A DNA stretch of 64,000 nt, from assembly GCF_003790525.1 (NCBI RefSeq), contig NZ_CP033635.1, one strand, 5' to 3'. The notes below the pieces were generated by a model. It worked only from the letters and a program-made list of their open reading frames with translations, made no database searches and was not told the DNA's origin. Of the stretch, positions 27,383 to 27,865 are shown in pieces; within the stretch, counting starts at the first letter, position 1, and each line of letters starts with the position of its first letter. The position numbers and the translations under genes were made by a program. This stretch comes from Escherichia coli. GTDB lineage: Bacteria > Pseudomonadota > Gammaproteobacteria > Enterobacterales > Enterobacteriaceae.

Positions 27383-27865
27383 TTAATGAAAATTCCGTTT
27401 ACGATAGTTGTCAATAATATTCATTACTGAATACCAGACCAGAATAAGTCCACTGACAGGCATAACCCAATATACTTTATCCATTGGCCATTTTAATACT
27501 GGAGAGATTTGTCCAACATGTTGTGCTTTTTCAACAACAATATTCCCGCCATAGATCATGAAAATAACCGCAAAGACCGTAATAATAATTTGGATAAAAC
27601 TGTCAAGCGTCAGAACAGATGCAGCCGGAAGTTTTTGAGCCAACAAATCAATGGCCAGATGTTTTTTTAACCCCGCAGTATATACACCGCCAAGTAAAAT
27701 CATCCACATAAATAAAATCTGGGTGAACTCATCAAGCACAGTGCTGGGAGCGTTAAAAATAAAACGTGCAATAACTTGCTAGGTTACGCAGAACACCATA
27801 ATGGCGAGAATAATGCAGCAACATCCGGCAAGGATCTTATTAAGAATATGAGTGAGTGTTCGCAT
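27383..27865 (-). pseudogene. TRAP transporter small permease (DctQ family) interrupted by in-frame amber codon
   Basis: Reading frame from ATG at 27865 (MRTLTHILNKILAGCCCIILAIMVFCVT) hits TAG at 27781-27779, then continues in the same frame (QVIARFIFNAPSTVLDEFTQILFMWMILLGG...) to stop at 27383; full length would be 160 aa, typical for DctQ. Confidence 0.7.

Follow-up and report, generated by a model that had tools for sequence, protein, structure and literature searches.

An amber codon at a former Dcm site interrupts the TRAP small-permease gene dctQ in an Escherichia coli lineage

An in-frame amber codon in dctQ

The subject of this work is a 64,000-nucleotide stretch of Escherichia coli DNA (the window; NCBI RefSeq assembly GCF_003790525.1, contig NZ_CP033635.1) that carries the genes of a transporter of the tripartite ATP-independent periplasmic (TRAP) type. 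The gene for the small permease of this transporter, dctQ, is interrupted by an amber codon. Four features describe the interruption:

27383..27865, minus strand: dctQ (TRAP transporter small permease), a pseudogene here; 160 codons, 483 nt (from translation, Pfam and RefSeq).
27779..27781, minus strand: amber TAG at codon 29, ancestrally TGG (Trp29) (from translation and allele alignment).
27737..27739, minus strand: in-frame GTG at codon 43, a candidate restart that opens a residual open reading frame (ORF) of 118 codons (27383..27739).
27779..27783, plus strand: former Dcm site; intact alleles read CCAGG and the window CTAGG, the inner cytosine at 27780, which Dcm would methylate, having become T.

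Translation of the minus strand from the ATG at 27865 gives MRTLTHILNKILAGCCCIILAIMVFCVT, followed by the TAG at 27781-27779. Beyond this codon the frame resumes as QVIARFIFNAPSTVLDEF... and ends at a TAA at 27385-27383, so that readthrough of the TAG would give 160 sense positions. The start codon lies 41 nt past the dctP stop codon (27909-27907) and has a GGAAG upstream. A preliminary description of this DNA, made from the sequence alone, had reported the in-frame TAG and an uninterrupted product of 160 aa; re-reading and translation agree with it, all of its coordinates and lengths are exact, and 160 aa equals the annotated size of intact E. coli alleles. The identical 483-nt frame is open in other E. 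coli, where the annotation gives a TRAP small permease of 160 aa. In the ORF list of the window, it is represented solely by the 118-codon GTG ORF (27739..27383), which does not contain the first hydrophobic segment of DctQ (residues about 3-39). The gene is flanked on the same strand by dctP and dctM, the neighbours that mark a dctQ, and it does not have the open frame of ~160 aa with four helices of a full-length small permease. It is a DctQ member by descent, yet a pseudogene.

Apart from three substitutions, the window is the reverse complement of positions 3346032-3410031 of E. coli SMS-3-5 (NC_010498.1), and the 3-kb region around dctQ has a reported match of 100.0% to many E. coli chromosomes. 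RefSeq lists the SMS-3-5 gene (ECSMS35_RS16705, NC_010498.1 3382167-3382649) as a pseudogene, 'TRAP transporter small permease', with the note 'internal stop'. The same 'internal stop' label is present in all of the genomes with this TAG that we opened (SMS-3-5, CFSAN061771, N-01, CUVET16-465 and SBF22). The dctQ pseudogene has already been flagged by RefSeq and is hence known; besides it, no second pseudogene is annotated in the 64-kb SMS-3-5 counterpart of the window.

The interrupted codon was TGG

We aligned six intact alleles (Nissle, ATCC 11775, E2348/69, EC-10, MG32 and WP5-S18), each of which is annotated as a 160-aa protein. The contrast at codon 29 is TGG versus TAG only, and besides codon 29, a single synonymous site separates the Nissle allele from that of the window. 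The preliminary description had proposed an alignment of orthologs as the way to find the ancestral codon, and the answer is TGG, in 6/6 intact E. coli alleles. Since all six alleles agree, the interruption reads as one transition, G to A on the coding strand, W29*.

The lost tryptophan is part of the conserved domain. Nissle DctQ matches Pfam DctQ (PF04290) with E=6.5e-27 over residues 23-154, corresponding to model positions 1-130 of 132. Trp29 is invariant across 12 aligned homologs that range from 36 to 100% identity; R34 is also invariant, and Q30 nearly so. Solved SiaQ/SiaQM subunits align with intact DctQ from residue 18-20 on, and 7qha_A shows T-W-Q at this place. With a tryptophan that no aligned homolog lacks and that falls within the Pfam domain, the frame upstream of the TAG is coding. 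Orthologs with a start equivalent to 27739 had been named beforehand as evidence to the contrary, but the full-length homologs in the alignment all start about 28 residues ahead of the tryptophan.

The amber codon occurs on one operon haplotype

The TRAP locus was found in 1207/5426 complete E. coli genomes. Of these 1207, 38 contain an exact copy of an 81-mer centred on the TAG and 1169 differ from it. Identity of at least 99.9% over the 7.5-kb operon is reached by these 38 genomes and by no others, and the next operon haplotype, which is 98.8% identical, carries TGG (EC-10). The sources of the 38 genomes, in many countries, are surface (river) water, cheese, humans, chickens, dogs, a cat and a pangolin. 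That so many independent assemblies of one near-identical haplotype have the TAG in common indicates that it has one origin, on this haplotype, and is not a sequencing error.

On at least 1000 public contigs, gene callers have made a protein of the 118-aa residual ORF; the TAG allele is therefore common in draft assemblies as well. In the protein collection these entries form P0033 (118 aa; e.g. ESD11498.1 and BEA86119.1) and are deposited as 'hypothetical protein' or 'TRAP transporter small permease protein'. The GTG-started P0033 entries are an annotation artefact, that is, fragments of the pseudogene.

Further truncated or frameshifted forms of DctQ are found in the protein collection, four in Salmonella (P0012, P0015, P0018 and P0025, with 17-58 member sequences) and three in E. 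coli (P0016, P0017 and P0019). P0016 is a frameshifted form of 111 aa with 172 members, and its T5 allele, when rebuilt, was present in none of the complete E. coli genomes. We therefore dropped recurrent inactivation within E. coli; P0016 is either an assembly artefact or belongs to an unrepresented lineage.

Sequence context of the mutation

The ancestral coding strand reads ACC-TGG at this position and thus holds CCTGG, which is CCTAG in the mutant. No other CCWGG site exists in the 483 nt of ancestral dctQ, and Trp29 is the sole codon in a Dcm context among the 5 Trp codons of the gene. A stop codon can be reached in dctQ by 56 different single-base changes, 17 of them G:C>A:T, and W29* is one of these 17. 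In the SMS-3-5 annotation, dcm (WP_001157241.1) and vsr (WP_000786004.1) are both intact genes. At the amber hotspots of lacI, G:C to A:T changes occur at the second C of CCAGG through deamination of 5-methylcytosine (Coulondre et al. 1978, as reviewed in PMC12606429).

From this context we infer that the dctQ amber most likely arose by deamination of 5-methylcytosine at the Dcm site. The methylated base at the only Dcm site of the gene (CCTGG/CCAGG) would have deaminated and escaped very-short-patch repair, and the resulting C to T change at plus-strand position 27780 would have turned the invariant Trp29 codon from TGG into TAG on one operon haplotype.

Another inner cytosine of a Dcm site has become T in the window, as one of the three substitutions that distinguish it from SMS-3-5. 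This change lies at 27106 (dctM codon 89, CTG to CTA; CCAGG to CTAGG on the plus strand), 674 nt from the dctQ amber; SMS-3-5 does not have it and, judged by bit scores, nor do any of the clone's 38 complete genomes. Inner cytosines of Dcm sites make up only 0.55% of window positions, and since the 27106 change is the same type of event at this rare class of position, it is in line with an origin of the amber by Dcm-site deamination. The tetranucleotide CTAG occurs 18 times in the window compared with ~249 expected from base composition, and there are only four occurrences of CTAGG/CCTAG, two of which are the new dctQ and dctM mutations. Depletion of CTAG is known and is attributed to very-short-patch repair.

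Sequencing error, suppression and restart

A one-base difference from intact alleles is what an error would look like, and the preliminary description had listed a sequencing error among its options, in which case the true dctQ would be intact. The change is, however, a substitution and not a homopolymer indel, and different laboratories obtained the same TAG in 38 complete genomes that were sequenced independently, from varied hosts and from countries on several continents; the downstream 118-aa ORF on the public contigs argues the same way. We regard the chance of a sequencing or assembly error as negligible. If the TAG is real, it could be read through by suppressor or near-cognate tRNAs, yielding enough full-length DctQ for a working transporter. 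Low-level natural readthrough of UAG is known in E. coli, and in the window neither the rest of the dctQ frame nor any other gene of the operon is damaged. The supE-type glnV gene, with a CUA anticodon, has 155 matches in complete E. coli genomes, but the 60 matches listed belong to laboratory strains derived from K-12. SMS-3-5 has a wild-type gln tRNA operon, with the anticodon CUG in glnV and glnX and UUG in glnU and glnW, and no CUA-anticodon tRNA is present among these four genes; other tRNA loci and the source genome were not scanned. There is no tRNA gene in the 64-kb window. On the tRNA genes covered, we therefore rejected supE suppression, which the preliminary description had held possible. 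Programmed recoding, in which the stop codon would be conserved, does not fit either: the TAG is found in 38/1207 genomes and on one haplotype, the remaining 1169 differ from the TAG 81-mer, the inspected alleles all have TGG, and the inspected homologs have Trp. Readthrough would also rarely restore the invariant tryptophan, and we consider a working transporter by this route very unlikely.

Restart of translation at the GTG at 27739, also proposed previously, or at Met53 or Met55 could give a truncated but functional small permease. The GTG lies in frame 39 nt beyond the TAG and opens the 118-codon ORF, and E. coli is known to restart translation behind early nonsense codons in some genes, lacI among them. 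However, when pairing with the anti-Shine-Dalgarno sequence was scored before every in-frame start past the TAG, no Shine-Dalgarno sequence was found before GTG43, M53 or M55. GTG43 scored +1.2 kcal/mol and all three starts at least +0.4, whereas dctM gave -6.4 and dctP -6.6. A product started at GTG43 would be without residues 1-42, which include the first transmembrane helix (TM1) and the conserved W-Q-x(3)-R (W29, Q30 and R34, all invariant or nearly so), no full-length ortholog begins there, and the Pfam domain starts at residue 23. We dropped restart on these grounds and hold a functional product of this kind to be extremely unlikely. There is a similarly slight chance that the amber allele is not null, with near-cognate readthrough or a GTG43 restart (giving a three-helix Q fragment) keeping slight transporter activity. 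The importer would then be tuned down rather than abolished, and this would account for the intact P, M and enzyme genes in most members of the clone.

An effect of the TAG on dctM was considered as well. The 406-nt stretch of dctQ that is left untranslated contains 85 G and 66 C, with no C-rich window and no obvious rut-like region. Rho-dependent polarity on dctM was not adopted and would in any case be conjectural, since the loss of Q alone should suffice. With its own Shine-Dalgarno sequence (GAGGGA) 10 nt past the dctQ stop codon, dctM may still be translated.

The surrounding operon and its probable substrate

The other genes of the operon are intact:

26068..27372, minus strand: dctM, large permease, intact; TIGR00786 dctM, 511.7 bits, above cut-off; annotated as intact in SMS-3-5.
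27907..28890, minus strand: dctP, substrate-binding protein, intact; NCBIfam TRAP_S1/dctP above cut-off; 84% identical to the Salmonella positional ortholog.
28963-29973, minus strand: Ldh-family oxidoreductase, intact (SMS-3-5 annotation and NCBIfam, as for the three genes that follow).
29984-31000, minus strand: Zn-alcohol dehydrogenase, intact.
30997-32469, minus strand: mannitol-dehydrogenase-family/fructuronate-reductase-like enzyme, intact.
32792-33541, minus strand: GntR/UxuR-like regulator, intact.

The genes upstream of dctP span 28963..33541 on the minus strand, and the island sits between ygiQ and ftsP. The preliminary description had contrasted intact catabolic genes with the broken dctQ, and all of the upstream enzyme genes are indeed intact in the window according to the SMS-3-5 annotation and NCBIfam.

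A positional ortholog is found in Salmonella between ygiQ and ftsP/plsC/parC, with DctP 84% and DctQ 78% identical. We take this locus to be STM3169-71 on the basis of its position and of the LT2 gene numbering. The TRAP binding protein of STM3169-STM3171 binds D-glucuronate (PMC7660916). The enzyme set of the E. coli operon recalls the H. influenzae GulPQM pathway (PMC5788505), and L-gulonate was therefore considered as a substrate. The closest solved relatives of DctP are DctP-type TRAP binding proteins, of which 4ovr scores 233.5 bits, whereas the match to the L-gulonate binder HiGulP (4pbq) is weak (103.8 bits). Because of this weak match and the 84% identity to Salmonella DctP, we rejected L-gulonate in favour of a hexuronate. 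By orthology with Salmonella STM3169-71, the substrate is probably D-glucuronate or a related hexuronate, and the function lost would probably be high-affinity hexuronate uptake.

Away from the operon, the other two substitutions relative to SMS-3-5 are at 9972 (TonB-dependent receptor codon 80, ACG to ACT) and 15781 (mdaB codon 151, TTC to TTT); with that at 27106, all three are synonymous. Judged by bit scores, the variants at 9972 and 15781 are missing from the best-matching complete genomes, and the window therefore comes from a member of the clone outside the complete-genome set. Over window positions 1-20000 (tolC, parE, a siderophore receptor/ABC island and qseBC), ~10 of the 38 TAG genomes are only 99.2-99.7% identical, and HCM-24C-3, which is not among the TAG genomes, scores the same as they do in this flank (99.2%, equal bit score). 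This pattern suggests either recombination adjoining the operon or the presence of the TAG haplotype in more than one sublineage. In SMS-3-5, torS (outside the window) is frameshifted, and gene order relative to K-12 shows a large chromosomal inversion, with genes from ~1.0 Mb in K-12 located at ~2.15 Mb and dcm at 1.227 Mb.

Discussion

We consider it very likely that dctQ is a lineage-specific nonsense pseudogene of the clone to which SMS-3-5 belongs, with loss of function. SMS-3-5 serves as the reference for sequence type 354 (ST354) in PMC9174282. Among the options set out in the preliminary description, a nonsense pseudogene is the one borne out by the ancestral TGG, by the invariance of Trp29 within the Pfam DctQ domain (23-154) and by the RefSeq 'internal stop'. 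Translation would end after 28 residues, inside the first transmembrane helix. TRAP systems need Q and M together, and because of this the transporter is expected to be non-functional without its Q subunit, with the binding protein, the large permease and the enzyme genes remaining intact. Q and M have been called 'the two required membrane subunits' (PMC7660916).

Several points weigh against this interpretation. Low-level near-cognate readthrough of the UAG or a restart could leave some residual function, and the suppressor check covers the glnV/glnX locus of one TAG genome. The Dcm-site origin is read post hoc from the sequence context of a single event. The other operon genes are intact in 36/38 TAG genomes, and the evidence for relaxed selection is weak. 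It consists of extra lesions in the operon in 2/38 TAG genomes, which would fit relaxed selection. An IS5 element splits the Zn-alcohol dehydrogenase gene in N-01 (L013, 2742-4823), and in CUVET16-465 (L014, 1273-2744) the mannitol-dehydrogenase-family gene has a 1-bp frameshift. With 0-3 single-nucleotide polymorphisms per 7.5 kb, the TAG clone is too young for the intactness of the operon to bear on selection.

The stop codon could also be a positively selected loss of function, an adaptive pseudogene, rather than the product of neutral decay. The TAG allele is fixed in a globally spread clone, and independent truncated or frameshifted versions of Q are present among Salmonella and E. coli protein entries. 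A single origin on one haplotype is, however, equally explained by hitch-hiking with a successful clone, and recurrence within E. coli is not established, the P0016 frameshift being in no complete genome. E. coli also has a second, general hexuronate transporter, ExuT, which makes neutral loss plausible; its cover could make the loss of dctQ tolerable. We therefore regard adaptive loss as unlikely. ExuT is cited for Salmonella in PMC7660916.

If dctQ is a pseudogene as we propose, the loss of an accessory TRAP importer of the hexuronate type, whose locus is carried by about a fifth of E. coli genomes, is probable in a widespread clone (SMS-3-5/ST354-type) that occurs in humans and poultry as well as in pets and water. 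The amber would also be a natural example of the Dcm-site route to such codons. In practical terms, the 118-aa entries named 'TRAP small permease' or 'hypothetical protein' can be recognised as pseudogene fragments, and the TAG could mark this operon haplotype. The overall significance is small, as this is an ordinary and already annotated pseudogene.

Comparison with known systems

The closest counterpart is ECSMS35_RS16705 itself, which is the same coding sequence as the window dctQ at the nucleotide level and has the same TAG. The entry comes without the ancestral codon, the distribution or the mutational context, and otherwise there is no substantive difference. The present analysis adds the ancestral codon, the exact distribution and a plausible way in which the mutation arose, and it excludes a sequencing error, supE and any credible restart.

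STM3169-STM3171 of Salmonella Typhimurium has the same chromosomal position and the same P-Q-M order as the E. coli locus. The E. coli island differs in having an extra GntR regulator and three oxidoreductase genes upstream, whereas the Salmonella operon is described without neighbouring catabolic genes. With the SiaQM/SiaQ subunits of sialic-acid TRAP transporters (7qha/8b01, 7qe5, 8thi and 8y4w), the dctQ product has the DctQ fold in common, and 'TWQ...R' is seen in TM1 of 7qha_A. These structures are distant from it (E=3e-10 to 1e-3) and belong to transporters of another substrate; they serve only to place Trp29 in the first helix.

For the mutation, the nearest parallel is provided by the Dcm-site hotspots of lacI (Coulondre, Miller, Farabaugh and Gilbert 1978), as reviewed in PMC12606429. 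In both genes, a G:C to A:T change at the second C of CC(A/T)GG leads to an amber codon. At the lacI hotspots listed in that review CAG becomes TAG at a coding-strand CCAGG, whereas in dctQ the methylated C would have been on the non-coding strand and TGG became TAG. The dctQ case is one natural event; that of lacI is a measured spectrum.
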